Below are positions 10,014 to 29,170 of a stretch of DNA of 64,000 nt, in pieces. A program made the position numbers and the translations under genes. The stretch is from a virus, in the IMG/VR virus record IMGVR_UViG_3300042356_000801, positions 27,170 to 91,169 of that record, one strand, 5' to 3'. Below the pieces are notes generated by a model. It saw nothing but the letters and a program-made list of their open reading frames with translations. It was not told where the DNA came from and made no database searches. Each line of letters opens with the position of its first letter. Within the stretch, counting starts at the first letter, position 1.

Positions 10014-10620
10014 TCAAGTCATCTAAGTCTTGGTCTGTTGCGTTCGATTTTGTTGGCTTAGGGCGACCACCTGCATGTTGTTCCCAAAACTCATTCAGTT
10101 CTGTTTTTTGGTCGGCGTTAAGGGCCTTTGCAAGTCCTGCAAATTGGTCCCACTTATCAAGTCGGCCTTGCTCTGCTGGGGAGATGCTCATTGCTTCTTC
10201 AATATCCATTGCCTCTTCACTGCGGGCAAGGTAAAGACCTACGCCAAGAGTTTGAGCGGCTTTCTTGAGTGCGTCAGAAACGGCACCCTTCATCTCGTCA
10301 CCAAGGTCAACGATATCGCCAGTCTTGGTGCGCTTGATTTTTTGTCCACCAAATCCGTCACGAACAACAGTGCTTTCAGGACGAGTTGCGTCAGTGTGCC
10401 ATATTAAACGAACATGGGCAACAATGTATTCAGGGTCAAGAGAGTCTCTGTCGCAAGAGAGGATATTGAACGACCATGAGTCAATTCCTAGGACTTTATT
10501 GAGGCGAGTAATCACTTCACTTACGGGGATGTAAGTGAGAGACGCCCCACCTTTCTTGAGAATCTTTTCCATTTCACGTGGAAATGGTTCTGCTAATAGT
10601 TGGGTTATGTTGGTGTTCAT
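9964..10620 (-). CDS. Rad52/Rad22-family ssDNA annealing protein (Sak-like)
   Basis: YIP..EVITRLNKVLG..SWSF...KGAVSDALKKAAQTLGVGLYL. Confidence 0.85.
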   Translation of the reverse strand: MNTNITQLLAEPFPREMEKILKKGGASLTYIPVSEVITRLNKVLGIDSWSFNILSCDRDSLDPEYIVAHVRLIWHTDATRPESTVVRDGFGGQKIKRTKTGDIVDLGDEMKGAVSDALKKAAQTLGVGLYLARSEEAMDIEEAMSISPAEQGRLDKWDQFAGLAKALNADQKTELNEFWEQHAGGRPKPTKSNATDQDLDDLIAEIVRIQFGGTLVSE

Positions 10621-12715: not shown

Positions 12716-14788
12716 ATGGCGTGGAATCCTTCTACAAACAAGTCGCTAAATAACCAAGCGCAAAAAGACATTGGCCCAGGTGCTCCAGTAGCACAAAACC
12801 CTGGATATGCAGGCAAACCGTACAGGGACTCATGGGATATTGAGCGCGCCTACAGAGAGGGTATGCAGAAGGTCACATGGGTATCTAGGTGTATTGATGC
12901 CATTGCCGGAAACCAAGCCAGGCTTCCTATTATTCTCAGAAAAGACAACTCCCCACACGGAGAAATACTTTCCATAAAAGAAGCCAAAAAAGTACCATTG
13001 CTTAACATTTTGAACAGCAAGTCAAACATTGGTGAGAACTCTTACATCTTTAGGTACAGACTTTCTGCTCAGCTTCTTCTTGGCACAAGAGGTGCTTTTA
13101 TCGAAAAAGTGAGAGGTAGAGACGGGGGCATTATTGGCCTCAACCTTCTCCCGCCTCAATCAACTTCGCCAATCCCTGACCCAAAAAAGTTTGTTTCTGG
13201 ATATGAAGTTCAGATGCCAACTGGAAACAAAATCTTTCTAAAACCGGAAGATGTTTGCTGGGTAAGAAGACCGCACCCAATTGACCCGTATCTATCGTTG
13301 ACACCACTTGAAGCATGTGGAGTAGCCATTGAAATAGAAAACTTGGCAAAGCTTTACAACAGAAACTATTTGCTCAATGACGGAAGACCTGGTGGTCTTC
13401 TTGTTCTCAAGGGAGAAATAGATGACGATGACAAGGAAGAACTAAGAAGCAGATTCCGTGGAAACTTGTCTCGTGTTGGATACACCTCGGTAATCTCTTC
13501 CGATGAAGGTGTTGATTACATTGACACTTCGGCCAACCCACGAGATGCCGCCTATATCCAAATGCGTCAGCTCACAAAAGAAGAAATCCTTGCTTCTTTT
13601 GGTGTTCCTGAATCCGTAATCGGAAACGCTGCAGGAAGAACTTTCAGCAATGCTTCTGAAGAGATTCGAGTCTTTTGGATGGAAACAATGCTTCCTCACT
13701 TGGAAATTTTGTCTCGTGCCTTAGACGAACTTGACGTAGATAACTACGTTGACTTTAACGTGGACCAAGTGCCCATTTTGATGCTGTACGAGCAGGAGCG
13801 TCATCGCTACTTGATGGATGAGTTCAATGCAGGACTAATCAGCAACAATGAATACCGAATTGGTTCAGGTCGTAAAGAAACCGAAAGCGATTTGGCTGAC
13901 TCGTTGCTTGCCAATCCAAACCTCATCCCAATCTCTAACACCAAGAAGAAGATGGAAGAACCGTCCCAGGTTCAAGTTCCTGGAGCCCCAGGACAGCCAG
14001 GAATGCCTGGCATGCCACCTGGTGCCCCAGCGATGCCAGGGATGCCTCCAGTGCCCGGACAACCACCTGTGGACCCAAACACAATGGCCGGAGCACTTGC
14101 AGAAGTTGGCTCAACCGTTCCTCCTGGCGGGGAACTGGCTCAGTCCCCAATTCCAGGCATGCCTCCCGGCATGATGACGGGCGCAGAACCTATGCCTATG
14201 GGTGCAACAAGTGCTGAGTCTTCCGAACTTGAAACAAAGTCCCTCGATACGGAATTTGATTCTCAAAAACTAGAGATGGAAAGATGGGAAGAGATTCTTG
14301 TCAGAAGCATGGAAAGAGTTTTGGAAAGACAGCAAAGAGTTGTTCTTGAAAAATCAAGTGGAGCAAAAGCTAAGAAAGCTTTGTTTGCCGGAACCCTAGA
14401 CATCCCATCTGTTCTCCCAACGGATACATGGGATAGACAGTTTGATGAAGACATCAAGCCGGTCGTGACAGCCATCGTCAAAGAGTCGTTTAAAGCTTCT
14501 TCCCCTATGGGAAAGAAGTCTGCAAAAAACTCCACCATGGAATCTGACATTATTGCTCAGGTTGATTCTCAAATGGCAAGAATAAAAAGTCTTAACCAAG
14601 ATTTGACCGATGAAATAACTTCGTTAATGCTTTCTTCCATGAATGTCGCTGACGAAGACCAGAGAGCTGGAGCCTTCAGGTCAAACATTGTTTCTTTGTA
14701 CACAAACGTGCTCGCAAAGAGAATTCCTGAAATTGCCGAAGAAGAAGCTCGCAGGGCGTGGATGTACGGGAAGTACATCACAGGATAG
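12716..14788 (+). CDS. HK97-family portal protein with Pro/Gly/Met-rich linker and C-terminal extension
   Basis: WVSRCIDAIA..QARLP, QLLLGTRGAF, NDGRPGGLL, EILASFGVP. Confidence 0.9.
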   Translation: MAWNPSTNKSLNNQAQKDIGPGAPVAQNPGYAGKPYRDSWDIERAYREGMQKVTWVSRCIDAIAGNQARLPIILRKDNSPHGEILSIKEAKKVPLLNILNSKSNIGENSYIFRYRLSAQLLLGTRGAFIEKVRGRDGGIIGLNLLPPQSTSPIPDPKKFVSGYEVQMPTGNKIFLKPEDVCWVRRPHPIDPYLSLTPLEACGVAIEIENLAKLYNRNYLLNDGRPGGLLVLKGEIDDDDKEELRSRFRGNLSRVGYTSVISSDEGVDYIDTSANPRDAAYIQMRQLTKEEILASFGVPESVIGNAAGRTFSNASEEIRVFWMETMLPHLEILSRALDELDVDNYVDFNVDQVPILMLYEQERHRYLMDEFNAGLISNNEYRIGSGRKETESDLADSLLANPNLIPISNTKKKMEEPSQVQVPGAPGQPGMPGMPPGAPAMPGMPPVPGQPPVDPNTMAGALAEVGSTVPPGGELAQSPIPGMPPGMMTGAEPMPMGATSAESSELETKSLDTEFDSQKLEMERWEEILVRSMERVLERQQRVVLEKSSGAKAKKALFAGTLDIPSVLPTDTWDRQFDEDIKPVVTAIVKESFKASSPMGKKSAKNSTMESDIIAQVDSQMARIKSLNQDLTDEITSLMLSSMNVADEDQRAGAFRSNIVSLYTNVLAKRIPEIAEEEARRAWMYGKYITG

Positions 14789-14887
14789 TTTTAGTATTTG
14801 GTTTTAGTAAACAATGCGAAAAACCTGAATACTTACCGTTTAGTGCAGTCTTTGTCGTTTATTATCGAAGAATACACAAGGAGCCAC

Positions 14888-17800
14888 ATGCCCTCTTCTA
14901 AGAAAAATTCCGACATTCAGTACAAGGCTGCACCGCAAGGAATGGTGAATCTTGACGAAGCCGAAGGCATCGTTGAATGTTTTGTCGCAGGTATTGGTAA
15001 CAAGGACTCAGTCGGCGATGTTTGCGCCCCTGGAGCTTTTGGCAAGAGCCTAATTAGGCGTAAGCCTCGCGTTGTTTGGGGTCATAACTGGAACGACCCA
15101 ATCGGTAAAGTCCTTGATATGTATGAGGTTCAGCCAAGTGACCCTCGTCTTCCTAACAAAATGAAGGCTGCCGGAATTGGTGGCTTGTATGCCCGCGTTC
15201 AGTTCAACTTGAAGTCAGAAAAGGGCCGCGAGGCTTTTGCAAATGTGGCATTTTTTGGCGAAGAACAAGAATGGTCAATCGGCTACAAGACGATTAATGC
15301 CAAGTTTGACCCACAGATGCAAGCAAACATTCTGTATGAAGTTGAGCTTTACGAAGTTTCTCCAGTTCTTCATGGTGCCAACCAGCTGACAGGAACAATT
15401 TCAATAAAGTCCGAAGACCAGTCATCAACAGTTTTAGTAAACGAACAACCATCTATCGACGGCCTCAACATAAATGAGCTTTCTTCAGTTTTAGATGCGT
15501 TGAAGACGATTGCGTCCACCACAGATGAAAAGTGTGGACCCGGAATGCCAATGGGCATGCCTGCGCAAATGCCAATGGTGATGCCATCTGGTGGACCAGG
15601 AATGCCTTCTGTATCAAAACCAACACAACCAACCGCCCCAAGAGAGTCCGTGAAGCCAGAAGTTCCATCAATGCCGGAAAACCCAATGCTTGTAGCAATT
15701 AGAAGAGAATTGGTCGACAGGACTGGTTCAAATATTATTGTTCGTTCCGTAATAGAAAACATAGTTGTATTCGACAGAATTACTACTGATGGAATTTCTA
15801 GTACTTATAAACTTCCTTTCAACTATGCAAACAATGAATTCATGTTTGGTAAGCCAGAGAAGATAAACACACAGCCAACTCCAGAGTCAAGTATCCCAAC
15901 AATGCCAGGAATGCCTCAACAGTTCGGCGGGTTCGATACTGGAAAATCTTTGATTTCGTTTGATGACTTTTCCTGGGTAGGTTTTAACCAGCAGATACCA
16001 GCTCAACAAGTTGATATATCTACGCTCAACAATGTCATCAGTAATCTTGAAAAGATTATCGAAGAGAAGTCGACATACATAATCCCCGTTGACATAAACA
16101 ACGCATTTGAAGTTAAGCAAGCAATTGACCCAATTCTTGATTACTACAGAGTTGATGCAACTGTTACTGAAGACGGCATCGTTGTTAAGTCTCTTGATAA
16201 CGAGTTCCTTGACGCAATGGACATTGCCACAAAGGGTGTGTTGCGCAGTATCGGCAACATGGTTGGCCGTGCGGTAGATAGACCAAACATTGGCAAAAAT
16301 AGGCGTGATAGAAATCCTAACCTCGCATCAAGAGGTCGAGGAATTGGTTCCCGTGGAGCTGTAGTAAGACTCGCCGACGGAACGATGTGGGACCCAAAAA
16401 CCGCACCGGACAGGAACAATAACGGCATTGTAGGTGAAGGCCTTACAGACGGTCGCGGCATGTCTCTGTCCCAGCCGGACCCAACACCAAGTGGACCCAA
16501 CTCAATCGATGCTCCAAAGACACCTAAAGCCCCTAAAGCTCCAAAGAAGGCTACAAGACTTTCTTCTGGCGGAGATGATTCTTCACGTGCTCGCGACCTT
16601 GCTAAGCAACGGGAAATGGATAAGGCAAGAGGTGCTAGTGCTACAAACCCAGTAGGAAAAGAAGCCGTCGAGCAAGCCAAAAAACTTGAAAGAGAAAGAG
16701 CAGCAGCACGTCAATCTGAAACTCGTCTTTCTTCTGGGCGCGTCATAATGTCGGACGGTCAAATGGAAATATCATTTGATGAAGAAGACGGAGATGGCAT
16801 CTATGACGCAACAAGAGACGGTTTCCGAATAATTAGAAATGAACGTGGCAGCGGCGGTGGCAGAAGATTCCCAGAATCCACAGCAACGTACGGCGGGTCA
16901 GGTTTAAGTGAAGCCGAGAAAAAAGAAATTCTTGACGTCGTCAAGGATAGTTCCAACCCATTGGTTCAAAAAATATTGAAGGGTTCATTTCCTAGTAGCT
17001 TGTCCGATAAACAGTGGGCTGTTCTTAAAAGGGAATTTGAGAAGAACAAGAAGAAAACTCCTTCTGGCTATATAAGCAATGTCCGAAGCGGTGGAACAGT
17101 TGCTCCTGGAGCAAAACTTGATGGCGGAATTGCTTATCTTGAACCAGACCACGCCAACGACAAAGACTACGAAAACCTACGTGACGCAATACAGACAGCA
17201 ATGCGCTCCAATCAGATGCTTCGTTTTGACTACAGTGGAAAAAACAGAGAAGTAATTCCAGTAAAAATTGAGAAGAACAATAAAACTGGTAAGTGGAACT
17301 TGACTGCCCAAGACGACACTGGGGCAAGAAAGCTTTTTAGTCTCGACAAGATAACTCCGTCTTCGGCAGAGCGCCTTTCCTCTGGTGAGTGGACAAAAAC
17401 TGATGACGGCATTGAGATGGACGCGCCGGATATTGATGGTGGTTACCTAATACAAGGCAACTCCAAAGATGGATTTGTAGTAACTAGATTTGCGGACGCT
17501 AGACGTAACGGTGGACAAAATGCTAACGAATACGAACATGACAAAGTTTTCACGTCAAGTAGCGCGGCTAAGAAGTGGGCAGAAAGAAACTACAAACTAA
17601 TCAGCGAAGAAATAGGCAAAGAGGACGTAGAAATAAGAAAAGCTGACGCAGAAAGAAGCGCAGACTTTGCAGACATGACTCCAGAAGATGCCGCAGATTA
17701 TGCCGCTTGGATGGACGAAGAAACCTGGAGAGACAGGGACCCAAGATTCTCCTCCGGTGAAGGATATTGGGTAGATGCTGCAGAAAAAGAAGCAGGAAAT

Positions 17801-20800
17801 GACCCTAAAAAACTTGCTGATTTCTTGATTGAACAAGGAATACTTGAAGAAGACCACCCAAGAGTCAAGAAGCTCAGAAACCGTTTAACCGCCGACGACG
17901 AGTTTGAAAAAACATTTTCAATGCTTGCCGAGATGGATGCTGAAGCTGAAGCAGAAAGCAGAGCAGAAAGGCGTTCAACCCAGTTTACGGCTGTAGAAAA
18001 CCCATTCGGACGTCTTTCCTCTGGTCAGAGAACATGGATAGATGCCGCAGAGGATGAAGCAGGAGACGACCCTAGGGAGCTCGCTGATTTCTTACTTGCA
18101 AGAGGTGTTATCGACGAGGAAGACCACCCAATAATCAAGGGGCTCAGAGATGGTCGTACAGCTGACGATGAACTCGAAAAAGCATACGAAATGCTTGCTG
18201 AGATGGATGCCGAAGACCAAGCAGAACACGCTGCACAGTTTAAGAACGCAGCCTCAGAAGTAAGCAGTCTGACCAAGCCAACAATGCCGGACCTTGATGG
18301 AATGGACGAAGACGAAGCAGGAGATGCGTTACAACAGGCAAATGATGAGATATTAAGTTTTGCTGATGGAACAGAAAACATTGCGAGAGAATACCTTGGA
18401 GACGCAGAATACAACAAGAGGTTTGGTGGCGCAGTTCCATTAATCGAAGAGATGTCAAAAAACCATGACGGCGGCAATTACGAGCGTGAGATAGCTCTTG
18501 AAAACGCACTTGAGCGTGCTAATGGATTCAACCTGTCAGTCGCCGGAGAGATGGAATTAGAAAGCAACAGATTCTCTTCTGGTATAGATTTTGACAAGAA
18601 AGGTGCATCAGGCCTCAGGGAGATGCGCCATGTTGAGCGCAATCCACTCAGGATGGATTCATCTGCTGAAAAAGCAGAACGTGATGCATATGAAAAAGAT
18701 GTTGCTGCCTTCATAAAGAACAATGGCTGGTTTGTTGAAGTACCGATGTACAACGGTGACCCAAAGTGGCAAAGTGAAGATTGGTATCGCGCAAGAGAGT
18801 TTGCTACAAACGTTGCAAAATTGCGTTTCGAGGACAACTACCAAAACGAAACTAATCAATTCATGCAGTTCTTTGATAAGCCAGGAAAGCCTTCAAAGAA
18901 AGACTTCTTCGCCAAGAAGGGGACCGTTGATTACAAGTCTTGGTACATGGCTCATACCCCTCTATTGACAAGCGAAATAGACAGCGTTCTTAATTCTGAC
19001 CTGTACTCTGACAATTACAAAGAGTCATACATGAATGCTATTCGTTCATTCTTGTATGTAAACAGGCCTGAATTTGGTCCATACGGTGGAGATGACCCCG
19101 CTTACCAAGCATGGCTACAACAGTCGGGTCTTGGTTACGGTGGAAGATACAGCACGTCAGGTCCAAAATTTGACGAAATGGGCAGATTCTCTTCTGGTGC
19201 TAAGCGTGGAAGTAGAAAAGATAACTACATAAATTCTTACGAAAACCCAGAAGACTTGAAAGAAGCAATCTTTTCTGAGCTTATTTTTGCAGGAGACTAT
19301 GAAGGAATGACTGCGGAAGACTTGGCCTACGCGCTAAATGTCAGGGCAGAAAGTGTTGAACCAATTCTTGAGCAAGTCAAAAAAGATGTAGGCGACGCAC
19401 GGGAAGACTACGACCGCTACTTAGAGTCACAACCAGAAATGACTGACGAAGACCTGCAGGCAATGGCGGATGACTATGCTCGCGCACAGACTGTAACCGA
19501 CAAGTTTAACAACATGACTCCAGAAGAAGCAGCCGATTACGCCGCTTGGATGGACGAAGAAACCTGGAGAGACAGGGACCCAAGATTCTCCTCTGGTAGG
19601 GAACTTACCGACGAAGAAAAGCAAGAACTGGGGGCTCAATTTGCCAGAGCCCAAGACAGGCGAAAAGCTGAACTGGAAGAACGGGGGGCTCAATTTGCCA
19701 GAGCCCAAGATAGGCGGAAAGCAAAAGAAGACCGCATCACTAAGTTCTACAGGGAGATGGCAGAGCAAAATGCAATGCTTTCAGAAATGACCCCAAGCGA
19801 ACTCGCGGATTACGCCGAGCAATGGAACGAAAGCCATGCAGAAGATTCTCGTCTTTCCTCAGGTGGTATAAACTATTACGACTGGATGGTAGAAAATGGT
19901 GTTCCGCGTTCAGCACTAGACGGTGAAAGGTTCCGTGGAAGAGACGCTTACGGACACTCTTTCCATGACTACTATGCGGAAGATGCTTTTGCAAATATCG
20001 ACGAAGCAGTCGTTGAAGCGCTTCTTTCTGACAGAACACAACGAACATCTATTCAGGATTTAGCAAAAGAAGCAAGAGAACATGGGCTTCAACTGGCCAC
20101 CAACCGCAGCATGCAGGAAGAGTTCTCCTGGGCTGAGGCAGTAAATCCAAAACCTGAGAGCTTGCGCGCGGAAGATTTGGTTCGTAGACCTGATGACTTA
20201 GGCTCAAACGCAAGACGCGTAGCTGAAGCAGTTGCTAACAACAGTAATGGCGCAAGAAGTGCTGCGTCTAGAGAAGACATTCTTCATTTTACCTACGATG
20301 GTAAACAGCGCTCTGTGTATCCAGAATCATTTGGGACAAGCAAAAAAGGCATTGCCTTCTTTAGAGCCTGGGACGAAACCGCAGACGATGGCAATGGTGC
20401 CTACAGAAGCTTTAATATCGACAAGATTGAGGGACTGGTTTCACACGCAATACCTCCATATGTTGAAATAGGAACAATGACCCCAGAGCCCAAGTGGAGC
20501 ATTGCTGACTTCAGCATAGAAGACTGGGCAAAAATTAATGACCGGTTCTATTTTAGAAGTAGCGAAGTTGGTCGGGCGGCGTTTGATATTGAGACCGCTA
20601 TTCAATGGGAGCTTGAAGGCACTGGAACAAGGGCTCCAGGTTCGATAATCGACACAGCCGAAAGAGAACTAAAGCGCCTCAAGCAAATTGCTTTCGACAA
20701 ACACATCACCGAGATGGTGGAAAAGGGTGCTACAAGTTCAAAATTCTCTCTTGACATTGAAAATGCAAAAAGATACGGTGTAAAGCCACTCAACAGAGGA

Positions 20801-23800
20801 AATAGACTGTCTTCTGGCGGTTCGGGCAGGTTCAATATTGCGGAAGCTCGTTCATTTGATGACATGTCAGACAGGGAACAGCTTGCAGTCTTCAACGGAA
20901 TCAAGGACAGACTTTCAGAAAATAACCCAAGCATGGTTAGCGTCCTGGAAGACGGCGGACTCAACATCGATGGATATCTTGCAGATTTCCCTCAACTTCA
21001 CCCAGACTTCTCTTCAGAAGAAAGCGGCGGAGAAAGGTTCTCTTCTGGTGGTTTTGCACCACCAAAGCCAAAAAGAGCAGCAAGAAAAGATGAAGAAGGC
21101 TTAATCGATGGCGCAAGAGTCATGCGAGGAAATACTTTCATCGAAAGCGTTGTTGGTCAGTATGAGAGAAATCGTGGAAAACTAAGTGATGCGCAGTGGG
21201 CCAAATTGGCCGAGATTGTTGGAAGAGGTTCTAAACCAACATCAGCCGGTGCTCCAACCCCAAAAAGGCCAAGCAAGGGTCCAAGACTGGAAAAGTACTC
21301 TGGTAAGCCTCGCAAGATAATAGGCATAGACGAAGTTGTACCATACGATTACCCTGAAGCCGAGTTTAAGCCAAACCCAGAACAGGCTGATGCGATTGAC
21401 GCCATGATGACAGGCTCTGACGTAAAAGTTGGAGCTTTAGCAGCAACAGGTAAAACAACAACAGTAATAAGTTTTGCCAATCGTTTGGCCGCTCAAGACC
21501 CAAGCGCAAGAGTGCTTTATTTAGTTTTCAACAGAGACGCCAAGAGCGATGCTGAAGCTCGCGGAATGGGTGACAATGTTTCCGTTATGACGATGGACGG
21601 TATTGCGTTTAAAGCCATGATAGGGGCTGGTGGTTCTCCAGGTCTTAGGCCTGGTCTAAAAACCAAACTGTATGAAGCCGGAAAAGCGTCCATGGATGAC
21701 TCGGTTAGGTCGTACGTAGGCAAGGCAGCATATCTTGGAATCAAGGGAGCTTTTATACCGCGAGATGGTGATGCACCACTTGAATTAACTCCCACAGATA
21801 TTTACAAAATTGTTGCTAAAGGCGTAAACGCTTACTCAATAAGTTCAGACGAAAAAATAGGACCACAGCATTTTACTGGGAAATTTAATGGACCTTTAGC
21901 AATTCCTGAAGACAGCCCAATAATGCCTAACGTATTAAAATATGCCAACAAGATGTGGGAAGACCTGCAACAGGATAGGGACAACTTAAAAAAGCAAGGA
22001 ATGCTTGGTCTTGAGTCTAACCATCTAACAAAGATGTGGGCACTGACTAAACCAGATGTTGCAAGTTTTGGTGGCACTGATGGCGTAAACGTAATCATGG
22101 TTGACGAAGCTCAGGATATTAACCCTGTGTTTGCAAAAATGATGAAAGATTCTAAGTCTGCACAAAAAATATACATTGGTGACACCAATCAGGCAATCAA
22201 TGCTTGGCGTGGAGCTGATGGCTCAACCTTGGATGCAGTAGAAGCTGAATACGATATGCCGATAACCGAATCGTACAGATTCGGAGCGAAGATAGCAGGC
22301 ATAGGCAACAGGTTCTTGACTTTGCTTGGGGTAAAAGAACGCATGACCGGAAAAAAGACAAGAGCAGGCAAAAACGGCTCTCGTGTTGATGTTCCAGGTG
22401 AAGTTGTTACCGAAATGAGCGTTTTAGACGCAACAATGATTCTTTGTCGCAGCAATGGTGGAGCCATAGCCGCAACCATGGAAGTAATTGAAGAGGGTGG
22501 CGGACAAAAGAAAGTTTACGGAAGCGCAAATTTCAAAAAAGATTTACAAAACTTTATTGACAATATTGAGTGGATGCAGAATGCCGAAAAAGGCGAACCC
22601 TATTGGACAAATTCTCGCGGAGAGAGAATGACAAGTAGGCCAGAATTCAGCGCGGACCTTGAAGGAATAACAACGTACGAAGAATTTAAAAAAGAAGTTG
22701 CTTCTGCGGACAATAACAGACTAAACATGCTCGATGGTTTATTGGAAAAGAATTCAATACCAGGACTACGTAATGCTTTAGACAATATTCTCACAAGAAA
22801 AGAAGACATAGAAAAGCTAGACCCTAACGATTATGTAAAGATACAAACAGCACATACATCAAAAGGCCTTGAATCTGGAAAAGTGAAAATTTGGTCAGAC
22901 TTCAGAAAGCCAAAATTTGACGAAGAACTCGAAGAATGGGTTATGCCAAACGAGCAGGAACTTAGGTTGTCTTATGTTGCTGTAACTAGAGCAGAAGAAG
23001 AAATTGACCTCGGTTCACTCGATTGGGTTTTTAACCACACAACAGATGCAGACGAGAAGCCAAACGCTCGTTCCGCCAGGTTGTCTTCTGGAAGAAGCAT
23101 TGCAAGAAGACAGGGCAAGGGCAAGAACAGTCGTGCTCGTGGACAGCGTCCATGGAGCGATGAAGACCGTCAAAACTTTGCTGATGGCAATAGGCTCCGT
23201 GCTCAAACAATTCCAGGCAAGCGCCGTGAGGGACCTGCAGCAGCAGAATTCTCTTCTGGTGAAAGACTTTCTGCTGGTGGTTCTGGATTCTATCTCGACA
23301 ACCCACCAGACGACGACTCCGATAAGTGGATAGACATGGCAAGCGACGATTACAGGTCTATATCTGATTCATGGAGGGATTTCCCAGAAGAAACAGATGA
23401 ATTCCTTTCCGACTTTTGGAGCTCTCATGAAACATGGGGCCAAAACCCTCCATCGCCATGGGAATTTACTGCAGAAAATCTTTCAGAAATAACAGACATT
23501 TTTGAAAACACGCAAAGACCTTCAGCATACGAGCCATACTATAAGCAATTACGCGACTTAGAAGGCCTTCCAAAAGAAGACATAATTAAAGCGTTAAAAC
23601 AAATACGCGAAGACGATGATGACACGCAAATGTTTGTGGAATTCTTTAACAAAGATGTTTTTGAAGTTGCCGAAGAAAAAGAAGCACCACTTGGTAAGTA
23701 TGTCCTTGAGGCATTGCAAGAATGGAACAACCTCCCCAAATGGCTAGAGAATAGCCAAACGGACGACGGTTACACTCGCCCGTACAGGTTCTATTCTGGA

Positions 23801-26800
23801 GCCCGTTTTGCGCCAGATGGCGAGTCGGGTTCACGAATCCAAAGAAGACTTTCTTCTGGAGAATACTTTGGACCACCTCCAACCGGCAGCGGCAAGTACA
23901 ACAGCAGAGAACAGGTCCGCGCATCGTTGGATGCGTTCCACAGTGACCCGGGTACCGCAGTAATCCCGTCCGACATGCTGGGCATACTTGGTTCTGTTCC
24001 AAAGGGTAAGGAATCTCATATTCTTAATGCAGAAGTTGCAAAAAAGATTATTGCTAATCCAGATATGGAATATTCGTCAAACAACGGCTGGCCCGTTGAC
24101 GCAGGCAGGCTTCTTGACTTTATTGAAGTAAACGAAGAAGATGCCATCAGAACTCTTCGCGAAATTGGAGACGCTCAACGTATTTCTTCAATTCTTGGCA
24201 TACCAGAAAAAGATGCGCAAGACATGCTTGACGGCAAGCCCGTATACATCATGGCGGGAACGGCTGCAGACATGCTTGACGACCTCAAGGAAGGAAAACA
24301 TTACCTAGAGGCTGGCCAGCTTGGTAATGAGGACGTAACAAGAATCTGGGGATTTGATGGTGCTCCAAAGTGGGTTCGCCATAGCGATATCGCTACCCCG
24401 GAATATGACCTTGACGAACAAGGCAGGGTTAACTGGTCTAAAGAAAAATGGGACAGTCTTTCAAGAGAACAATTTGATGCTGAACTAGCAAGAGGCAAAA
24501 ACCCACCAGAGCCTGTTTACGAATCTCCAGTAGAGCGTTTTAACTCGGAAGCAATTTTTGACAACCCTAAGTGGAATGCTCGTAGTGGCTCGTTCAGGAA
24601 CCCAGTAGTGGATTCAGAATTTGCAGTAGCACCACGAGCCGCAAGAAGGTCAGAACAGCTAGAGCCAACGAGAGCACCATCTCAGGCAAGAGTTGGCGAA
24701 AAAACCGTAATGGCTGACAAGGAATTTGCAGCAAAGTGGATTAAGCGTGGACATAGCGTTACTGCTTCAAACATGATGGACATTCTTGGGGTTGAAAGAG
24801 ATTCTAAAAATCCAGAACCTTCAACTGAAGAGCTGAACAGGCTTATTGAAGCAATGAATGAAGTTAGTGCAAAAGTAGGACTGACTCCTTTGTCGGTCAC
24901 AAGGGCACCAACAAAAAGTGACCTTAAAAAATTGGGAATTTCCGACGAGTTTATGCATGCTCTTGTTGCTTCTGGAAAGTTTAAGAACATGAAAGAAGCA
25001 ATGGCAAGTCTTGGTGATTCAAGATTTGATTCATTGGCTGCCGAATATGACTCAAGAATGCTTTCCGATGCCGCTTTGTTGAGAATAAAAGACAAAATGA
25101 ACAAAGAAGGCGTTCCCAATTCAGTAGCTGTTCTGATTGAGGCAATTACTGCTTCTTTTGGCCGCAAGCAAGCATGGGAAAAGCGAATCAAAGAAGGTCG
25201 CGTATCCATCAAGGGTGACATGAAGGAAGACGGAATGATTAGCGATGCTAAACTTTCTGAACTGCTTGGGCGAGTGAACGATGCTCTCGCAAGGTCTGGA
25301 TACCCAGAAATAAGTCAAGACGAACTTTTCCCCAAGGACGAAACTGGCGGATATGTTGACAACCTTAGCTCTGCTGTTCCCGGTGCGCCAAGAATGTCTT
25401 CAGGTCAAAGGTTTGTAGCAAGAACATCTTCAAGCAGAAGAGCTGACGCTATGAACGATGCTGCTGCTCGTAGAGAAGGCAATACTTCTCGACTTTCAAG
25501 CGGAGAAAGCCTTCCATTCAAAGACGAAAACGGGAAGCTTGTTCCAAGCAATATTAGTCAAGCCGCAAAAGATGCAACACCCGCTAATCCTGGATTCGAC
25601 AGGGAGCCGCTGATTCAAAGAAAGACTCCACATAGAAATTTAGAAGATGTTGAAAAAGCGCTCAAGACAAGACAAGCAATTTCCGAACTTTTCACAATGA
25701 ATCGCAAAAACACTCAAGGATTTAGCGTGTACGACTACCAAGACGAACTAGTAAAAGCTGGATTCCCACTGGAAGAAATTGAAGAAATGATTGATTCGTT
25801 TGTTCGACTAGATTCCTACATTGATGATGTAGAAAGACATTTCGAAATAGCAAGAGAAAAACTGGATGAAACACTTGAAGAGATAGAAGACAATCTTTCC
25901 AAGATTGAAAGACTCAAGGGAGAAAGAGCAGACGCAATCAAGAAGTGGGGGAACACCGAGGACAACTACTGGGTGCAAGCAATAGATGACAAAATTGCTG
26001 CTGCAATGATTAAAATCGATAAGGCATACCAAGGCGGAATCGGTGGAGAAGACGGCCGACTCGGAACACTTCATCCACAGCTTGAAGAAATGATGAGCGC
26101 GATGCCGGGCTGGACCGAAGGTCCATACGGAATGGGTGACGACATAAATCGACGACTTCTTAAAGTTGAAGCTTCTATCAGCAAGGCTGGCGGAAAAAAG
26201 AAGGCTGTTCCAGTAACTGGAATTGACTTTGGAGTACCAGAAGGCACAAGACTTTCTTCAGGAAAAGCAGAAGAGTACTACCAAAACCTCACAAGCCATC
26301 TCATCAACATGATTGAAAAGTCACAAAAAGATGGTGGCAAGTGGGAAGCACCGTGGCACAAGGCCGGCAATATGCCGAGAAACGCTTCTACAAAGAATAT
26401 GTACTCAGGCGGAAACCTCTTTGCTCTCATGCTTGCAGCAGAAGAAAAGGGCTACGCAACTCCTCATTGGGGCGGATTCCAGCAATGGAAGAAGCTCGGC
26501 GGAAGCGTAAAGAAGGGTGAAAAAGCCACTGCGATTCTTATGCCTAAAACGATGTTTGGAGATGAAATTGACCCAGATACAGGCAAGAAGGTTCGCAAGT
26601 CTAAGGGTATCTATTTCACAACCGCACACGTGTTCAACCTCGACCAGGTTGAGGGTATTGACCGCGAAGAATTCTTGAAGCTTCCAACCGATGCTCTTAC
26701 TCCAGAGCAAAGAGTCGGAAAACTTGAGGACGCAATCAAGGAAATTGGTGCAACAATCAACACGGGAGACGGAAGCAGGGCTTACTACTCTCCTCGTGAA

Positions 26801-27406
26801 GACCATGTTGTTATGCCTCCATTTGAACTCTTCAAGACACCAGAGGGCTATTATGGAACTCTTGCTCACGAGCTTGTCCACTGGACCGGCCATTCGTCAA
26901 GGCTTGACAGAAAAAACATGAACCAGTTTGGCTCACCAGAGTATGCAAGAGAAGAACTCATTGCAGAATTTGGTTCAGCATTCTTGCTTGCAATGTTCGG
27001 GCTTTCTGCGGAACCAAGAGAAGACCACGCCCACTACTTGGCCAACTGGCTTCAGGTTCTTCGTGATGAGCCAAACGCCTTGCAAGAGGCTTCTACAAAG
27101 GCTCAAGAAGCATCAAAGATGCTCATCACAAAGATGAAGATAGTCCTGGAAGAAATGGGCGAAATAGCATCGGATGCAGAGTCGGCAGCTGAAGAAGCAG
27201 TCGATGTAAAGAGTTTGCAAGTTTTCAATGACCCACTATACGAATTCAAAGATGCGTCTATCGAGTGGAGTAAAGACCCACTTCATGCACCGTTCTTGAT
27301 TAAGTCTCTGGATGATGAAAAGCATTCATCGGGTCTTGTTAATAGAAGTTGGGAAAGAATTGCAGAAACAGCAATTTTCCTTGAACGTCTGAGCAGAAAT
27401 AAATAA
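14888..27406 (+). CDS. Giant polyvalent head protein 1 (~4,170 aa): prohead protease plus RLSSG-delimited cargo modules
   Basis: Single open frame; AGGAG SD before ATG 14888 (track start 14798 is a TTG); domains listed below. Confidence 0.85.
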   Translation: MPSSKKNSDIQYKAAPQGMVNLDEAEGIVECFVAGIGNKDSVGDVCAPGAFGKSLIRRKPRVVWGHNWNDPIGKVLDMYEVQPSDPRLPNKMKAAGIGGLYARVQFNLKSEKGREAFANVAFFGEEQEWSIGYKTINAKFDPQMQANILYEVELYEVSPVLHGANQLTGTISIKSEDQSSTVLVNEQPSIDGLNINELSSVLDALKTIASTTDEKCGPGMPMGMPAQMPMVMPSGGPGMPSVSKPTQPTAPRESVKPEVPSMPENPMLVAIRRELVDRTGSNIIVRSVIENIVVFDRITTDGISSTYKLPFNYANNEFMFGKPEKINTQPTPESSIPTMPGMPQQFGGFDTGKSLISFDDFSWVGFNQQIPAQQVDISTLNNVISNLEKIIEEKSTYIIPVDINNAFEVKQAIDPILDYYRVDATVTEDGIVVKSLDNEFLDAMDIATKGVLRSIGNMVGRAVDRPNIGKNRRDRNPNLASRGRGIGSRGAVVRLADGTMWDPKTAPDRNNNGIVGEGLTDGRGMSLSQPDPTPSGPNSIDAPKTPKAPKAPKKATRLSSGGDDSSRARDLAKQREMDKARGASATNPVGKEAVEQAKKLERERAAARQSETRLSSGRVIMSDGQMEISFDEEDGDGIYDATRDGFRIIRNERGSGGGRRFPESTATYGGSGLSEAEKKEILDVVKDSSNPLVQKILKGSFPSSLSDKQWAVLKREFEKNKKKTPSGYISNVRSGGTVAPGAKLDGGIAYLEPDHANDKDYENLRDAIQTAMRSNQMLRFDYSGKNREVIPVKIEKNNKTGKWNLTAQDDTGARKLFSLDKITPSSAERLSSGEWTKTDDGIEMDAPDIDGGYLIQGNSKDGFVVTRFADARRNGGQNANEYEHDKVFTSSSAAKKWAERNYKLISEEIGKEDVEIRKADAERSADFADMTPEDAADYAAWMDEETWRDRDPRFSSGEGYWVDAAEKEAGNDPKKLADFLIEQGILEEDHPRVKKLRNRLTADDEFEKTFSMLAEMDAEAEAESRAERRSTQFTAVENPFGRLSSGQRTWIDAAEDEAGDDPRELADFLLARGVIDEEDHPIIKGLRDGRTADDELEKAYEMLAEMDAEDQAEHAAQFKNAASEVSSLTKPTMPDLDGMDEDEAGDALQQANDEILSFADGTENIAREYLGDAEYNKRFGGAVPLIEEMSKNHDGGNYEREIALENALERANGFNLSVAGEMELESNRFSSGIDFDKKGASGLREMRHVERNPLRMDSSAEKAERDAYEKDVAAFIKNNGWFVEVPMYNGDPKWQSEDWYRAREFATNVAKLRFEDNYQNETNQFMQFFDKPGKPSKKDFFAKKGTVDYKSWYMAHTPLLTSEIDSVLNSDLYSDNYKESYMNAIRSFLYVNRPEFGPYGGDDPAYQAWLQQSGLGYGGRYSTSGPKFDEMGRFSSGAKRGSRKDNYINSYENPEDLKEAIFSELIFAGDYEGMTAEDLAYALNVRAESVEPILEQVKKDVGDAREDYDRYLESQPEMTDEDLQAMADDYARAQTVTDKFNNMTPEEAADYAAWMDEETWRDRDPRFSSGRELTDEEKQELGAQFARAQDRRKAELEERGAQFARAQDRRKAKEDRITKFYREMAEQNAMLSEMTPSELADYAEQWNESHAEDSRLSSGGINYYDWMVENGVPRSALDGERFRGRDAYGHSFHDYYAEDAFANIDEAVVEALLSDRTQRTSIQDLAKEAREHGLQLATNRSMQEEFSWAEAVNPKPESLRAEDLVRRPDDLGSNARRVAEAVANNSNGARSAASREDILHFTYDGKQRSVYPESFGTSKKGIAFFRAWDETADDGNGAYRSFNIDKIEGLVSHAIPPYVEIGTMTPEPKWSIADFSIEDWAKINDRFYFRSSEVGRAAFDIETAIQWELEGTGTRAPGSIIDTAERELKRLKQIAFDKHITEMVEKGATSSKFSLDIENAKRYGVKPLNRGNRLSSGGSGRFNIAEARSFDDMSDREQLAVFNGIKDRLSENNPSMVSVLEDGGLNIDGYLADFPQLHPDFSSEESGGERFSSGGFAPPKPKRAARKDEEGLIDGARVMRGNTFIESVVGQYERNRGKLSDAQWAKLAEIVGRGSKPTSAGAPTPKRPSKGPRLEKYSGKPRKIIGIDEVVPYDYPEAEFKPNPEQADAIDAMMTGSDVKVGALAATGKTTTVISFANRLAAQDPSARVLYLVFNRDAKSDAEARGMGDNVSVMTMDGIAFKAMIGAGGSPGLRPGLKTKLYEAGKASMDDSVRSYVGKAAYLGIKGAFIPRDGDAPLELTPTDIYKIVAKGVNAYSISSDEKIGPQHFTGKFNGPLAIPEDSPIMPNVLKYANKMWEDLQQDRDNLKKQGMLGLESNHLTKMWALTKPDVASFGGTDGVNVIMVDEAQDINPVFAKMMKDSKSAQKIYIGDTNQAINAWRGADGSTLDAVEAEYDMPITESYRFGAKIAGIGNRFLTLLGVKERMTGKKTRAGKNGSRVDVPGEVVTEMSVLDATMILCRSNGGAIAATMEVIEEGGGQKKVYGSANFKKDLQNFIDNIEWMQNAEKGEPYWTNSRGERMTSRPEFSADLEGITTYEEFKKEVASADNNRLNMLDGLLEKNSIPGLRNALDNILTRKEDIEKLDPNDYVKIQTAHTSKGLESGKVKIWSDFRKPKFDEELEEWVMPNEQELRLSYVAVTRAEEEIDLGSLDWVFNHTTDADEKPNARSARLSSGRSIARRQGKGKNSRARGQRPWSDEDRQNFADGNRLRAQTIPGKRREGPAAAEFSSGERLSAGGSGFYLDNPPDDDSDKWIDMASDDYRSISDSWRDFPEETDEFLSDFWSSHETWGQNPPSPWEFTAENLSEITDIFENTQRPSAYEPYYKQLRDLEGLPKEDIIKALKQIREDDDDTQMFVEFFNKDVFEVAEEKEAPLGKYVLEALQEWNNLPKWLENSQTDDGYTRPYRFYSGARFAPDGESGSRIQRRLSSGEYFGPPPTGSGKYNSREQVRASLDAFHSDPGTAVIPSDMLGILGSVPKGKESHILNAEVAKKIIANPDMEYSSNNGWPVDAGRLLDFIEVNEEDAIRTLREIGDAQRISSILGIPEKDAQDMLDGKPVYIMAGTAADMLDDLKEGKHYLEAGQLGNEDVTRIWGFDGAPKWVRHSDIATPEYDLDEQGRVNWSKEKWDSLSREQFDAELARGKNPPEPVYESPVERFNSEAIFDNPKWNARSGSFRNPVVDSEFAVAPRAARRSEQLEPTRAPSQARVGEKTVMADKEFAAKWIKRGHSVTASNMMDILGVERDSKNPEPSTEELNRLIEAMNEVSAKVGLTPLSVTRAPTKSDLKKLGISDEFMHALVASGKFKNMKEAMASLGDSRFDSLAAEYDSRMLSDAALLRIKDKMNKEGVPNSVAVLIEAITASFGRKQAWEKRIKEGRVSIKGDMKEDGMISDAKLSELLGRVNDALARSGYPEISQDELFPKDETGGYVDNLSSAVPGAPRMSSGQRFVARTSSSRRADAMNDAAARREGNTSRLSSGESLPFKDENGKLVPSNISQAAKDATPANPGFDREPLIQRKTPHRNLEDVEKALKTRQAISELFTMNRKNTQGFSVYDYQDELVKAGFPLEEIEEMIDSFVRLDSYIDDVERHFEIAREKLDETLEEIEDNLSKIERLKGERADAIKKWGNTEDNYWVQAIDDKIAAAMIKIDKAYQGGIGGEDGRLGTLHPQLEEMMSAMPGWTEGPYGMGDDINRRLLKVEASISKAGGKKKAVPVTGIDFGVPEGTRLSSGKAEEYYQNLTSHLINMIEKSQKDGGKWEAPWHKAGNMPRNASTKNMYSGGNLFALMLAAEEKGYATPHWGGFQQWKKLGGSVKKGEKATAILMPKTMFGDEIDPDTGKKVRKSKGIYFTTAHVFNLDQVEGIDREEFLKLPTDALTPEQRVGKLEDAIKEIGATINTGDGSRAYYSPREDHVVMPPFELFKTPEGYYGTLAHELVHWTGHSSRLDRKNMNQFGSPEYAREELIAEFGSAFLLAMFGLSAEPREDHAHYLANWLQVLRDEPNALQEASTKAQEASKMLITKMKIVLEEMGEIASDAESAAEEAVDVKSLQVFNDPLYEFKDASIEWSKDPLHAPFLIKSLDDEKHSSGLVNRSWERIAETAIFLERLSRNK
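14945..15415 (+). other. Domain: HK97-type prohead (capsid maturation) protease
   Basis: GNKDSVGDV..PGAF, WGHNWNDPIGK (His), EWSIGY (Ser), LYEVSPVLHGAN. Confidence 0.9.
17160..17360 (+). other. Domain: WYL-like #1
   Basis: AM..NQMLRFDYSGKNREVIPVKI...WNLTAQD..GARKLFSLDKI. Confidence 0.7.
17675..17758 (+). repeat. 84-bp direct repeat, copy 1 (MTPEDAADYAAWMDEETWRDRDPRFSSG)
   Basis: Matches 19514-19597 with 5 differences by eye. Confidence 0.9.
19514..19597 (+). repeat. 84-bp direct repeat, copy 2
   Basis: Matches 17675-17758. Confidence 0.9.
19631..19722 (+). repeat. Tandem duplication, 54-bp period (GAQFARAQDRRKA x2)
   Basis: GGGGCTCAATTTGCCAGAGCCCAAGA at 19631 and 19685. Confidence 0.85.
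20270..20435 (+). other. Domain: WYL-like #2
   Basis: ILHFTYDGKQRSVYPESF...FFRAWDE...AYRSFNIDKIEG. Confidence 0.7.
21365..23040 (+). other. Domain: UvrD/Rep-like SF1 helicase
   Basis: PEQ..AI, ALAATGKTT, LVFNR, MVDEAQD, IGDTNQAINAWRGA, ESYRFG, ILCRSN, TAHTSKGLE, LSYVAVTRA. Confidence 0.92.
26264..27150 (+). other. ardC: Domain: ArdC-like antirestriction module (ssDNA-binding N-domain plus zincin)
   Basis: W..PW, PRN..T...YSG.N, WGGFQQWKKLGGSVKKGEKA, VFNLDQVEG, AYYSP..D.V.MP, TLAHELVHWTGH..RLDR, YAREELIAE, HAHYL.NWL..L. Confidence 0.92.
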
Positions 27407-27493
27407 CATTCAACACACATACACCGCAATACTTACTCAAATGATACGTTTAGAGTATAATTTACGGTACTTACGAATTAGGAGTCATCTAAT

Positions 27494-29170
27494 ATGAACG
27501 ACGAAATGAACAACAGCCTTAGTGTCAGCACTGAGGGCGAAGTTCTGAAGTGCGCAAAAGGCGTAGATGCTTCAGCATGCGGGTTTACCCCTGGCGCAAA
27601 AGTGTGCGGCAAGTGCGGAGCCTTGCCGGTTCAGATGAAGATGGTCCCCGTGGATGAGGCCGAGGACGAAGAAGAGGAAATGGAAGACGAAGACAGAGCA
27701 ATGCCTGCGCCTCGTCCTGCACGCCCTGCTGGCCCAATGGCTATGGAAGATGCCAACATGGAACCGGAACAACTTGAGGTCCCAGAAGAAGACGAAGAAG
27801 AAGAATTGACCGATGAAGAAAAAGGCCTCCTTCGAATGCTTCTAAAAAAGCGCAAAGGTCGCAAGTTCAAGGGAATGAACATGGAAGATGACTACGAAGA
27901 GGAAGAGGATATGACCGACGAAGAAGAGATGACTGACGAAGAGAAGGCTTTTCTCTCGCAGGTAAACAAGAAGCGTAAGGCTCGCGGTCTCGCCGCCACC
28001 ACAAACGGCTTCAAGGGCATGAACGGCACACACATGACGCCTGACGGAACCGAGATGGAAGACATGCCCGATGAAGAAGAGGACTTGACTGATGAAGAAA
28101 AAGAACTCTTGGCAACCCTAAACAAGAAGCGTAAGGCTCGTGGTCTTGCTTCAACTTCAAACGGGTTCAAAGGCAAAGGCATGGACGAGGACGAAGTGTC
28201 TGAAGAAATGCCCGACGACGAAGAAGTAGAAAAGCAGATGATGCTTGAAAGAATGCGCAAAAAGCGTATCAAGTCTATGGGTATGAAGTCTGAAGCCTTT
28301 GGTGCCAACGGCTACCTGTGTGCAATTGAAAGAAAAGCTTATCCAGGCGGTTCGTCTGTTTGTGATGATTGCCCAGGCGGATGTATTGCTGAAAAGGGTC
28401 TTCCTGGCTTGCTTCATGTTGAAGGCATTGCCGAGCAAATGTTTGACGGAAAAGTTCTTGATTCTGGCTACTCAGCAAAAGCTGACATGTACGTCATTGA
28501 TGTGCAGACAAAGAGTGGCTCTGTGAATGAAGTTTTTATTGATGGAACAACTGCTGAAGTGCAAGGCTTCCACAAGCTTGACAACTCAGTGTTTGAACAG
28601 AAGTCAGCACAGGGTGGACTTGAGATGATTCAGTTCCACGAAGCAGCAGACATTGCGGTCAAGTCAATTGATGGCCATGTAATAGGTGTAGAGCCAGACT
28701 CTTTTGAGGGAATTGATTCATACGCAGTTGAAATTGACGGCTTTGACGGAAAGTCATACGACGTTTTTGTTTCTCTTGACGGAGAAGTCCTTGGTTACGA
28801 TAAGTACGAGATGGACGAGGCAGAAGAGATTGAAGCAGAGGCTGCAGAGATTGCACTTAAACGCGCATTTACTGACGACCAACGCAACTCGATGTCTAAA
28901 GAAGGAACTGCAATGTCAGATGGTTCTTTCCCAATTAAGAGCGAATCAGATTTGCGTAACGCAATTCAGGCTCACGGTCGCGCAAAGGATAAAGAAGCCG
29001 CAAAGCGTCACATCATGAAGCGTGCTAAGGACATGGGCAAAGAAAGTCTTATTCCTTCCAACTGGGTCATGGGTGGCGGAACTGAAAAAAAGAGTGACAC
29101 CGTAGACGCAGGTCTTATGGCTTCTTTGATTGAGTTTGAACTTCTTCAAGCCGAAACAGAAACAAACTAG
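27494..29170 (+). CDS. Acidic head-associated protein (scaffold/internal-protein candidate)
   Basis: AGGAG SD; Cys clusters; three (L/M)TDEEK...KKRK.R...FKG repeats; PepSY-like segments; C-terminal AMSDGSFPI....DLRNAIQAHGRA motif. Confidence 0.65.
   Translation: MNDEMNNSLSVSTEGEVLKCAKGVDASACGFTPGAKVCGKCGALPVQMKMVPVDEAEDEEEEMEDEDRAMPAPRPARPAGPMAMEDANMEPEQLEVPEEDEEEELTDEEKGLLRMLLKKRKGRKFKGMNMEDDYEEEEDMTDEEEMTDEEKAFLSQVNKKRKARGLAATTNGFKGMNGTHMTPDGTEMEDMPDEEEDLTDEEKELLATLNKKRKARGLASTSNGFKGKGMDEDEVSEEMPDDEEVEKQMMLERMRKKRIKSMGMKSEAFGANGYLCAIERKAYPGGSSVCDDCPGGCIAEKGLPGLLHVEGIAEQMFDGKVLDSGYSAKADMYVIDVQTKSGSVNEVFIDGTTAEVQGFHKLDNSVFEQKSAQGGLEMIQFHEAADIAVKSIDGHVIGVEPDSFEGIDSYAVEIDGFDGKSYDVFVSLDGEVLGYDKYEMDEAEEIEAEAAEIALKRAFTDDQRNSMSKEGTAMSDGSFPIKSESDLRNAIQAHGRAKDKEAAKRHIMKRAKDMGKESLIPSNWVMGGGTEKKSDTVDAGLMASLIEFELLQAETETN

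Follow-up and report, generated by a model that had tools for sequence, protein, structure and literature searches.

A recurrent peptide tag punctuates a protease-headed giant protein and its putative virion partners in a lake phage

The subject of this analysis is a protease-headed open reading frame (ORF1; positions 14888 to 27406, plus strand) of 4,172 amino acids (aa) and 464 kDa. It lies in a stretch of 64,000 nucleotides (nt), referred to here as the window (IMG/VR record IMGVR_UViG_3300042356_000801, positions 27,170 to 91,169), which makes up the right end of a single phage contig of 91,169 bp with a stated lake-water origin. ORF1 had previously been described, from the letters of the window alone, as a prohead protease fused to some 4,000 aa of cargo. 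The chain is divided into approximately 19 pieces by a recurrent five-residue tag, R-[L/F/M]-S-S-G, a feature overlooked in that description. The same tag was found in a second giant protein (ORF2) and in the tape measure protein, so that the earlier reading can be extended to a putative tag-punctuated polyprotein system across all three. The interpretation preferred here, held at only slightly better than even probability, is a virion polyprotein with cut sites at the tags and its own S78 protease as the most likely enzyme.

A recurrent tag in three proteins and its variation among relatives

The exact tag occurred 16 times in ORF1, compared with 0.018 copies expected from 2,000 residue shuffles. 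Together with the variants EFSSG and RLSAG, this gave 18 sites (16556 to 26263, plus strand), which delimit 19 segments of 6 to 681 aa. The first bases of sites 1 to 9 are at 16556, 16724, 17372, 17744, 18011, 18569, 19184, 19583, and 19850, and those of sites 10 to 18 at 20804, 21035, 23078, 23246, 23264, 23846, 25391, 25490, and 26249. ORF2 (29188 to 37941, plus strand; 2,917 aa, 325 kDa) has a tag-free N-terminal part of 1,326 aa followed by seven copies of R-[L/F]-S-S-G (first bases at 33154, 33862, 34285, 34969, 35857, 36793, and 37222, plus strand), which bound 7 modules; the expectation from residue shuffles was 0.0095. The tape measure protein (1,709 aa; L004:1000-6129, equal to genome positions 18999 to 24128, minus strand), encoded upstream of the window directly after the sheath, tube, and chaperone genes, carries two tags, both RLSSG, at residues 38 and 561. 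In a six-frame translation of the whole 91-kb genome, 26 copies of the motif were found, 25 of them in these three proteins.

The 27 tag sites were written with 25 distinct 15-mers that made use of all Arg codon families and both Ser families (TCN and AGY), and the sequence flanking the tags was not conserved. Selection therefore appears to act on the tag as a peptide and not on the DNA. A DNA-level repeat was considered as the origin of the tag and was ruled out by the same 25 distinct codings. The tags were located between modules, with none falling inside any Pfam domain. The ArdC homologue at the end of ORF1 starts 4 residues past a tag, aligning from its own residue 8, and the ORF1 helicase and the ORF2 exonuclease are each flanked by tags on both sides. 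Most of the tag-bounded segments of ORF1 and ORF2 belong to no known family.

A search with the N-terminal 600 aa of ORF1 retrieved at least 227 giant proteins of 2,300 to 4,700 aa from public metagenome assemblies. Each of them starts with the same protease, followed by varying combinations of ArdC, helicase, sigma-70 region 4, pentapeptide, and unknown parts. The S78 domain was present in all 120 of the giant homologues listed, a set retrieved with the protease-bearing N-terminal 600 aa. The repeated tag was found in nearly all giant relatives in a clade-dependent form, with one clade having 3 to 6 copies only. Close kin carried RLSSG or RFSSG, while the forms observed elsewhere were KLSSG, SLSSG, GLSSG, GLAS, GFAS, GFSS, LRSSG, GMRS, SMRS, and STRS. 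The only position constant in every lineage was the Ser that ends the core, the Leu/Phe/Met position having changed to Thr in STRS. The tag classes clustered on the protease tree, and since each class formed nearly a single clade, a test for co-variation between protease residues and tag had no power.

Within a genome, the form of the tag was consistent. ORF1 and ORF2 of one genome shared the same form, and tape measure homologues carried the tag of their own lineage, at the same two positions, in 8 of the 9 genomes examined. STRS, the form of the most divergent lineage, occurred 12 times in its cargo ORF and also at both tape-measure sites. Across 80 IMG/VR loci the synteny was fixed, with terminase, portal, protease-polyprotein, an ORF of ~470 aa, and the second giant in that order, and the length of the protease-polyprotein ranged from 1,019 to more than 3,800 aa. 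The module content was mosaic even between close relatives, with modules gained and lost independently at the tags: 155 of 183 module matches had their start no more than 12 aa away from a tag in the relative, compared with 29 of 183 for random positions. Taken together, these features form the pattern to be expected if the tags were protease sites that evolve along with a phage-encoded enzyme and act as joints for module exchange.

The protease-scaffold unit, its junction with the cargo, and the modules

ORF1 residues are numbered here as in the predicted protein P0001, counted from a TTG; subtraction of 30 gives the count from the ATG. The protease domain (14969 to 15400, plus strand; residues 58 to 201) matched Pfam PF04586 with 37.0 bits against a cut-off of 21 and also phrog_3244, a head maturation protease. 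The catalytic residues His96 (15083 to 15085) and Ser160 (15275 to 15277) were invariant in a 37-sequence alignment (A1), so that the His/Ser protease originally predicted at the head of the ORF was borne out. An AlphaFold2 (AF2) model of residues 1 to 491 gave a confident protease core and two further small domains; the segment at 15683 to 16264 (plus strand) comprises a middle beta domain (aa 296 to 350) and a C-terminal helical/beta domain (aa 407 to 489), modelled with a predicted local distance difference test (pLDDT) value of 77 to 95. The top Foldseek matches of the protease model were T4 gp21 and herpesvirus proteases, all of them weak (E 0.07 to 0.1; prob 0.96; TM score 0.47 to 0.50 on the target), and a PDB sequence search with the protease-scaffold unit gave no match. 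In many relatives this unit (~450 to 480 aa) stands alone, ending just past the conserved C-terminal domain (equivalent to ORF1 residues ~425 to 480), and the C-termini of stand-alone homologues of 450 to 460 aa align at the end of the conserved blocks encoded at 15683 to 16264.

In relatives, the cargo was joined to this unit by one of two routes, an in-frame fusion or a conserved -1 frameshift site, A_AAA_AAA. In 13 unique relatives, the short protease ORF stopped 0 to 4 codons past a conserved [T/C]CA_AAA_AAA, and the giant ORF went on in the -1 frame, which was open 31 to 61 nt upstream of that stop. In these sequences the -1-frame peptide was conserved from the slip site, though the first possible start codon lay 26 to 100 nt downstream. 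The same heptamer was present in five further sequences with an in-frame fusion and a -1 stop after one codon. Approximately 45 relatives, also fused in frame, had xxG_GGA_AAA at the homologous place with a -1 stop after 1 to 11 codons, and the codon before GGA_AAA always ended in G across Leu, Ala, Pro, Ser, Gly, Lys, and Trp. At loci L097 to L112 and L120 (e.g., L100:11368-11420), A_AAA_AAA was found at the end of a protease ORF of 460 to 510 aa, with a -1-frame cargo ORF of 2,000 to 3,300 aa or more unless cut by the end of the locus. Taken from the sequences, the arrangement in relatives looks like a programmed -1 frameshift of the Gag-Pol kind.

The window contains a candidate -1 slippery heptamer, C_CCA_AAA, at 16393 to 16399 (plus strand), followed by a -1 stop (TAA, 16420 to 16422) that would give a short form of ~511 aa. 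At this position, GAC_CCA_AAN was codon-invariant in ~25 unique relatives. A stimulatory fold downstream of the heptamer was sought, and the RNA fold of 16400 to 16480 was not unusual (z = -0.96). The lineage of the window has lost the main frameshift site and keeps the C_CCA_AAA candidate only. The family as a whole appears to make both the short protease-scaffold and the long fusion by frameshifting in one way or the other. As the link between cargo and protease is preserved by either route, selection appears to keep the cargo attached to the protease-scaffold, and the making of both products would ease the copy-number problem posed by a scaffold-like protein of 464 kDa. The pattern of frameshift and fusion is the strongest argument for the original prediction that the protease serves as a packaging handle, a proposal that thus gains comparative support. 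No Pfam match to a MuF/SPP1 gp7 domain, the handle of MuF-type head-cargo fusions, was obtained in ORF1 or ORF2.

The best-defined cargo lies at the C-terminus of ORF1, where the terminal module (26261 to 27403, plus strand) starts directly after the last tag and comprises a complete ArdC. It contains ArdC-N (26273 to 26587, plus strand; ArdcN, PF08401, residues 3826 to 3930, 92 bits) and a zincin MPTase (26723 to 27097, plus strand; MPTase-PolyVal, PF18818, residues 3976 to 4100, 146 bits), in which HELVH is intact at residue 4024 (26867 to 26881). The solved ArdC structures 6I89 and 6SNA were matched with E 2.4e-48, residues 5 to 288 of the module aligning with ArdC residues 8 to 284 of 297, and the module also matched the anti-restriction protein phrog_7245. 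The superfamily 1 (SF1) UvrD-like helicase (21374 to 23002, plus strand) occupies the tag-bounded module at 21047 to 23089. It was recognized by UvrD-helicase (PF00580) with 41.3 bits against a cut-off of 23 over residues 2193 to 2485, the UvrD match region extending to 2735; there was an AAA_19 match too, and UvrD_C was borderline at 24.6 bits, just under its cut-off of 25.6. The motifs ATGKTT and DEAQD are visible in the translation, and the module matched the DNA helicase phrog_1967 with E 6e-64. Complete ArdC and SF1 helicase, as first read from the sequence, therefore both stand. The two WYL domains of the same reading are better described as WYL-like: segment 1 (17183 to 17356, plus strand) scored 19.6 bits with PF13280, under the cut-off of 21.8, and segment 2 (20255 to 20428, plus strand) had no Pfam match and only resembled segment 1 (E 1e-6). 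The anti-defence action on entering DNA that had been proposed for this cargo would follow solely from the family names ArdC and helicase.

Among the 120 listed giant homologues, ArdC was the most widespread cargo module (89/120), followed by a basic, tag-bounded mini-module of 56 aa (23090 to 23257, plus strand; 75/120), and a homologous helicase module was found in 67. When 18 tag-bounded modules were scanned against Pfam under relaxed settings, no credible family emerged beyond the subthreshold WYL, RelA_SpoT (E 0.0024), and VapB-like (E 0.0011) matches, and a PDB sequence search with a 515-aa module gave no match. In ORF2, a DnaQ-like exonuclease module (35128 to 35667, plus strand) and a RelA/SpoT-like end module (37234 to 37938, plus strand; the Pfam match just given) were observed. 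Only the toxin-like C-terminal part of ORF2 matched PHROGs with a head morphogenesis or minor head protein annotation, and it did so in their C-terminal parts. Two nt past the RelA/SpoT-like module lies an 82-aa ORF (37944 to 38192), which may encode a neutraliser. A leader shared between the ORF1 junction and the N-terminus of ORF2 was sought, and none was found (E 2.8).

The extent of ORF1 was well supported. The portal gene ends 100 nt before the ATG at 14888, and the open frame is uninterrupted from a TTG at 14798 to 27406. The ATG at 14888 is almost certainly the true start, because AAGGAG is located 6 nt upstream and homologues begin at the corresponding position. In four metagenome runs of lake water (2020 to 2025), 14700 to 27500 was covered at even depth, and the main contigs were without differences from the window, a single variant contig of minor depth in X4 being the exception. 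No RNA run was listed among the sequencing runs that contain the sequence. Independent assemblies contained full-length versions of ORF1 that were 99%, 96%, and 87% identical, and one of these relatives has a complete ORF of 3,054 aa. It had been asked whether the ORF could be an assembly chimera or a false ORF, for which the breaks of short-read unitigs at 17725 to 17731 and 19541 to 19593 might speak. These breaks coincide with a 53-nt internal direct repeat, the only place at which contigs of the runs break, the depth is equal on either side of it in all four runs, and more than 200 homologous giant ORFs are found in independent assemblies, some 99% identical. A chimera can therefore be assigned a negligible probability, and the single continuous 12.5-kb ORF of the original prediction is confirmed.

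The repeat itself (~53 nt; window 17725 to 17758 and 19541 to 19597) encodes the ends of two modules (...RDRDPRFSSG). Unitigs of all four runs break at it, and the similarity between its copies ends at the tag. It looks like the footprint of a module duplication.

Candidate enzymes for reading the tag and alternative explanations

From the observed architecture, tag statistics, co-variation, module mosaic, and frameshift signal in relatives, we infer packaging, cutting, the cutting enzyme and its timing, and ejection, as follows. The first ~480 residues of ORF1 would act as a capsid-maturation protease with a scaffold-like targeting part, co-assembling into the prohead and carrying the ~3,700 fused residues with it. 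The chain would then be cut at R-[L/F/M]-S-S-G, most likely by S78, to release ~18 pieces, namely the helicase, ArdC, two WYL-like proteins, and a dozen unknown modules, which would remain associated with the DNA and reach the host cell at infection. The same processing set would include ORF2 and the tape measure protein, which share the tag. In relatives, the -1 frameshift site at the junction would set the ratio of short protease-scaffold to long fusion. Because the lineage-specific tag both splits the chain and marks ORF2 and the tape measure protein, the cargo is probably released as separate proteins and not delivered as one 464-kDa enzyme.

The scissile bond probably follows the invariant second Ser of the tag, as suggested by analogy with assemblin sites and by the finding that the middle residue may be Ser, Ala, or Arg. 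The site of herpesvirus assemblin, (V/L)-x-A↓S, is of the same form as [L/F/M]-x-S↓. A similar core was seen in the major capsid protein (43918 to 45288, plus strand; phrog_10, E 2e-60), which, compared with mature HK97 gp5, has an N-terminal delta-like extension of ~145 aa. Residue 175 of this capsid protein aligns with residue 29 of the mature HK97 chain, and projection from HK97 would place the maturation cut near VYSA↓LPSG (~44341 to 44364, residues ~142 to 149). The equivalent site in Gordonia phage Chidiebere is VFSS↓GLG. Both resemble the hydrophobic-Ser-Ser/Ala core of the cargo tag.

The ArdC zincin was considered as a general reader of the tag and excluded, as homologues that do not have it (e.g., P0045, P0048, and P0043) keep 13 to 15 tags. 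Two candidates remain, the S78 protease and an HExxHxxQ zincin in ORF2, with S78 judged the more probable. It is favoured because it heads the chain, because the capsid cut resembles the tag core, and because a linker with the tag, modelled in complex with the S78 domain, passed weakly. The prediction scored 0.41, compared with 0.00 for the best control; the runs agreed in at least 75% of contacts, and the pLDDT of the partner was at least 43. That mark was reached by 58 of 80 solved complexes and by 2 of 110 mismatched pairs, yet at scores of 0.60 or lower by just 7 of the 80 solved complexes and by both passing mismatches, so that low passes are often wrong.

Several observations weigh against this assignment and the scheme built on it. 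The tape measure protein is tagged at two conserved positions, yet it is a tail component assembled outside the head and would be hard to reach for a protease confined to the prohead. The ORF2 zincin was present in every genome in which ORF2 was visible, and owing to this co-occurrence with S78 the phyletic pattern cannot separate the two enzymes. S78 is highly conserved while the tag drifts, a mismatch that fits either S78 reading only part of the tag or another enzyme, and the site in the capsid protein does not follow the lineage-specific positions of the tag. The frameshift site in the window is a candidate, without a downstream stimulatory structure, and if every copy of the protease carried 464 kDa, the prohead could not hold it in scaffold-like numbers; its copy number must therefore somehow be limited.

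The same polyprotein read by the ORF2 zincin instead of S78 is accordingly given some weight, although this is thought rather unlikely. Cutting might then take place outside the prohead or after ejection, which would explain why the tape measure protein, too, carries the lineage tag (8 of the 9 genomes examined), and S78 would be a packaging handle and capsid maturase only. The signature HEIAHSIQ (residues 574 to 581; 30907 to 30930, plus strand) is located in the tag-free N-terminal part of ORF2. HExxHxxQ was present in 19/19 ORF2 homologues, with H, E, H, and Q invariant (alignment A2), and the residues around it varied by lineage, in contrast to the nearly invariant S78. Atlas features pointed to zincin-like peptidases at ~0.91, a lead only, and autoprocessing of polyvalent proteins by a zincin was proposed by Iyer et al. 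in 2017 (PMC5512222). Set against this, the region gave no Pfam or PDB match to a peptidase fold, including in PDB searches with the ORF2 N-terminus and a zincin profile, and its AF2 model was unreliable (pLDDT 52). ORF2, if it is head cargo, would meet the same problem of access to the tape measure protein. The projected capsid maturation site and the weakly passed complex prediction, in which S78 was the enzyme modelled, also speak for S78.

A chain that is not cut at all, with the 464-kDa protein acting or being delivered whole, is considered improbable. The tag would then be a linker or hinge inherited with the modules through duplication and recombination, or a site of binding or modification. 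Internal duplications do end at a tag, and copying of a linker with its module could spread the motif; transfer at full length has been reported for ArdC/TraC1 and for some polyvalent proteins (PMC5512222); and cleavage at the tag is itself deduced rather than observed. What argues against it is that the same five residues are encoded in 25 ways between unconserved flanks, pointing to selection on the peptide, and that the tag shifts in step in three unrelated proteins per genome. One of these, the tape measure protein, is tagged though not built of these modules. There is also one tag at nearly every module boundary, and the chain is headed by a protease.

Within the preferred reading of a tag-cut virion polyprotein, a more ambitious version was also formulated, which is regarded as possible though doubtful. 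It would be a Gag-Pol-like system, in which the protease-scaffold is the handle, a conserved -1 frameshift or in-frame fusion determines how many of its copies carry a string of a dozen or more effectors, and a lineage-specific five-residue "ejected-protein code" stands on all proteins that exit through the tail. The code would mark the tape measure protein along with the two giant head proteins, and a phage protease would cut at it either within the particle or shortly after delivery. If this version were true, the code would permit free swapping of modules between phages of one lineage.

Comparison with known systems, significance, and genome context

Polyvalent proteins combine many unrelated effector domains in one polypeptide, for which joint delivery with the DNA has been proposed (Iyer, Burroughs, Anand, de Souza, and Aravind 2017; PMC5512222). 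Processing by an embedded peptidase was proposed in the same article, with an analogy drawn by its authors to the polyproteins of RNA viruses. The giant chains described here belong to this class in that 2 to 15 or more unrelated effector or DNA-binding domains are found among late or virion genes, and they share with the published examples ArdC-N, the MPTase zincin, helicase, RelA/SpoT, and exonuclease in giant chains beside head genes. The position of the peptidase differs: assemblin-like peptidases are described there as rare and always C-terminal, whereas here the peptidase is N-terminal, including in all 120 listed homologues, which were retrieved by their N-terminal region. Neither term searches of PMC5512222 nor the literature search made here yielded a repeated cleavage tag, a lineage code, a tagged tape measure protein, or a frameshift-controlled fusion, and the literature search likewise returned no description of a tag-punctuated, protease-headed polyprotein arrangement.

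In T4, the internal proteins and Alt carry capsid-targeting sequences cut by gp21, and head proteins of phiKZ and SPN3US are cut by gp175 and gp245 (PMC9026906, PMC5694885, and PMC10052503). The fold class of the prohead protease is probably alike, as would be the principle of loading cargo into the prohead, trimming it at a short sequence motif, and ejecting it along with the DNA. In those phages, however, the cargo is encoded by separate genes with their own leaders, and the motif ends in Glu (L/I-x-E or S/A/G-x-E). Here the cargo is strung on the protease, with 18 internal putative sites and a core that ends in Ser, mostly Leu/Phe/Met-x-Ser, and the motif is shared by a tail protein. Plasmid ArdC (pSa/R388; PDB 6I89 and 6SNA) has a full-length homologue here, with both domains and the intact HExxH, as the last bead of a putative phage polyprotein and not as a free protein transferred by conjugation.

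Retroviral Gag and Gag-Pol are alike in the fusion of a structural handle to enzymes and, as regards the relatives, in a ratio set by a -1 frameshift heptamer; in the window, the fusion is in frame and the frameshift site is a candidate only. A further likeness to Gag-Pol and to the herpesvirus assemblin-scaffold fusion would be a protease that cuts its precursor within the particle. These resemblances are by analogy only, apart from the probably shared assemblin-like protease fold, for which the Foldseek match was weak.

The closest cultured relatives are the Gordonia phages Chidiebere and GMA6 and Brevibacterium phage Cantare. These are myoviruses of 83 to 93 kb with the same overall sets of head and tail genes, a capsid protein that is 47 to 49% identical, and a protease domain that is ~39% identical. 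They differ in having a 452- to 485-aa protease with an acidic tail directly before the capsid gene, with neither giant ORFs nor the repeated tag, and their likely cargo genes (RNA ligase and ADP-ribosyltransferase) are separate. A search of Chidiebere for a tag gave no recurring motif. Judged by these nearest cultured phages, the hosts are probably freshwater Actinobacteria.

Phages inject a few proteins along with their DNA, and to our knowledge rules of loading are established only for T4-like and phiKZ-like heads. Judged from sequence, ~25 proteins of this one 91-kb phage appear to be designated for carriage in the virion by a simple, readable code. Besides more than a dozen modules without a known family, they include ArdC, the ORF1 helicase, the ORF2 exonuclease, and the RelA/SpoT-like enzyme. 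The tag on the tape measure protein points to a single processing system for the ejection proteins of head and tail, and no report of such sharing was found in the literature search. If the tags are cut sites, they would allow candidate anti-defence effectors in uncultured phages to be listed directly, would provide a natural plug-in format for the addition of capsid cargo, and would be the counterpart, in viruses of bacteria, of Gag-Pol expression and the processing of polyproteins.

The tail genes of this phage (sheath, tube, chaperone, and the tape measure protein) are located upstream of the window on the minus strand. The head module runs in the order large terminase (minus strand), portal, ORF1, 558-aa ORF, ORF2, five unknown ORFs, and major capsid protein. 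The portal gene (12716 to 14788, plus strand; Pfam Phage_portal, E 2e-48) is directly upstream of ORF1. The 558-aa ORF between the two giants (27494 to 29170, plus strand) occurs at the same place in all relatives examined, with a length of 440 to 605 aa; no Pfam or PHROG match was obtained for it beyond PepSY at E 0.14. Two gene pairs were noted elsewhere on the minus strand of the window, at 2985 to 5272 and 9195 to 10620, respectively. In the former, a PAPS (3'-phosphoadenosine 5'-phosphosulfate)-reductase-like gene adjoins a ParB-N gene, possibly as a DNA-modification pair, and in the latter, a PD-(D/E)XK/Cas4-like nuclease gene adjoins that of a Rad52-type annealase.

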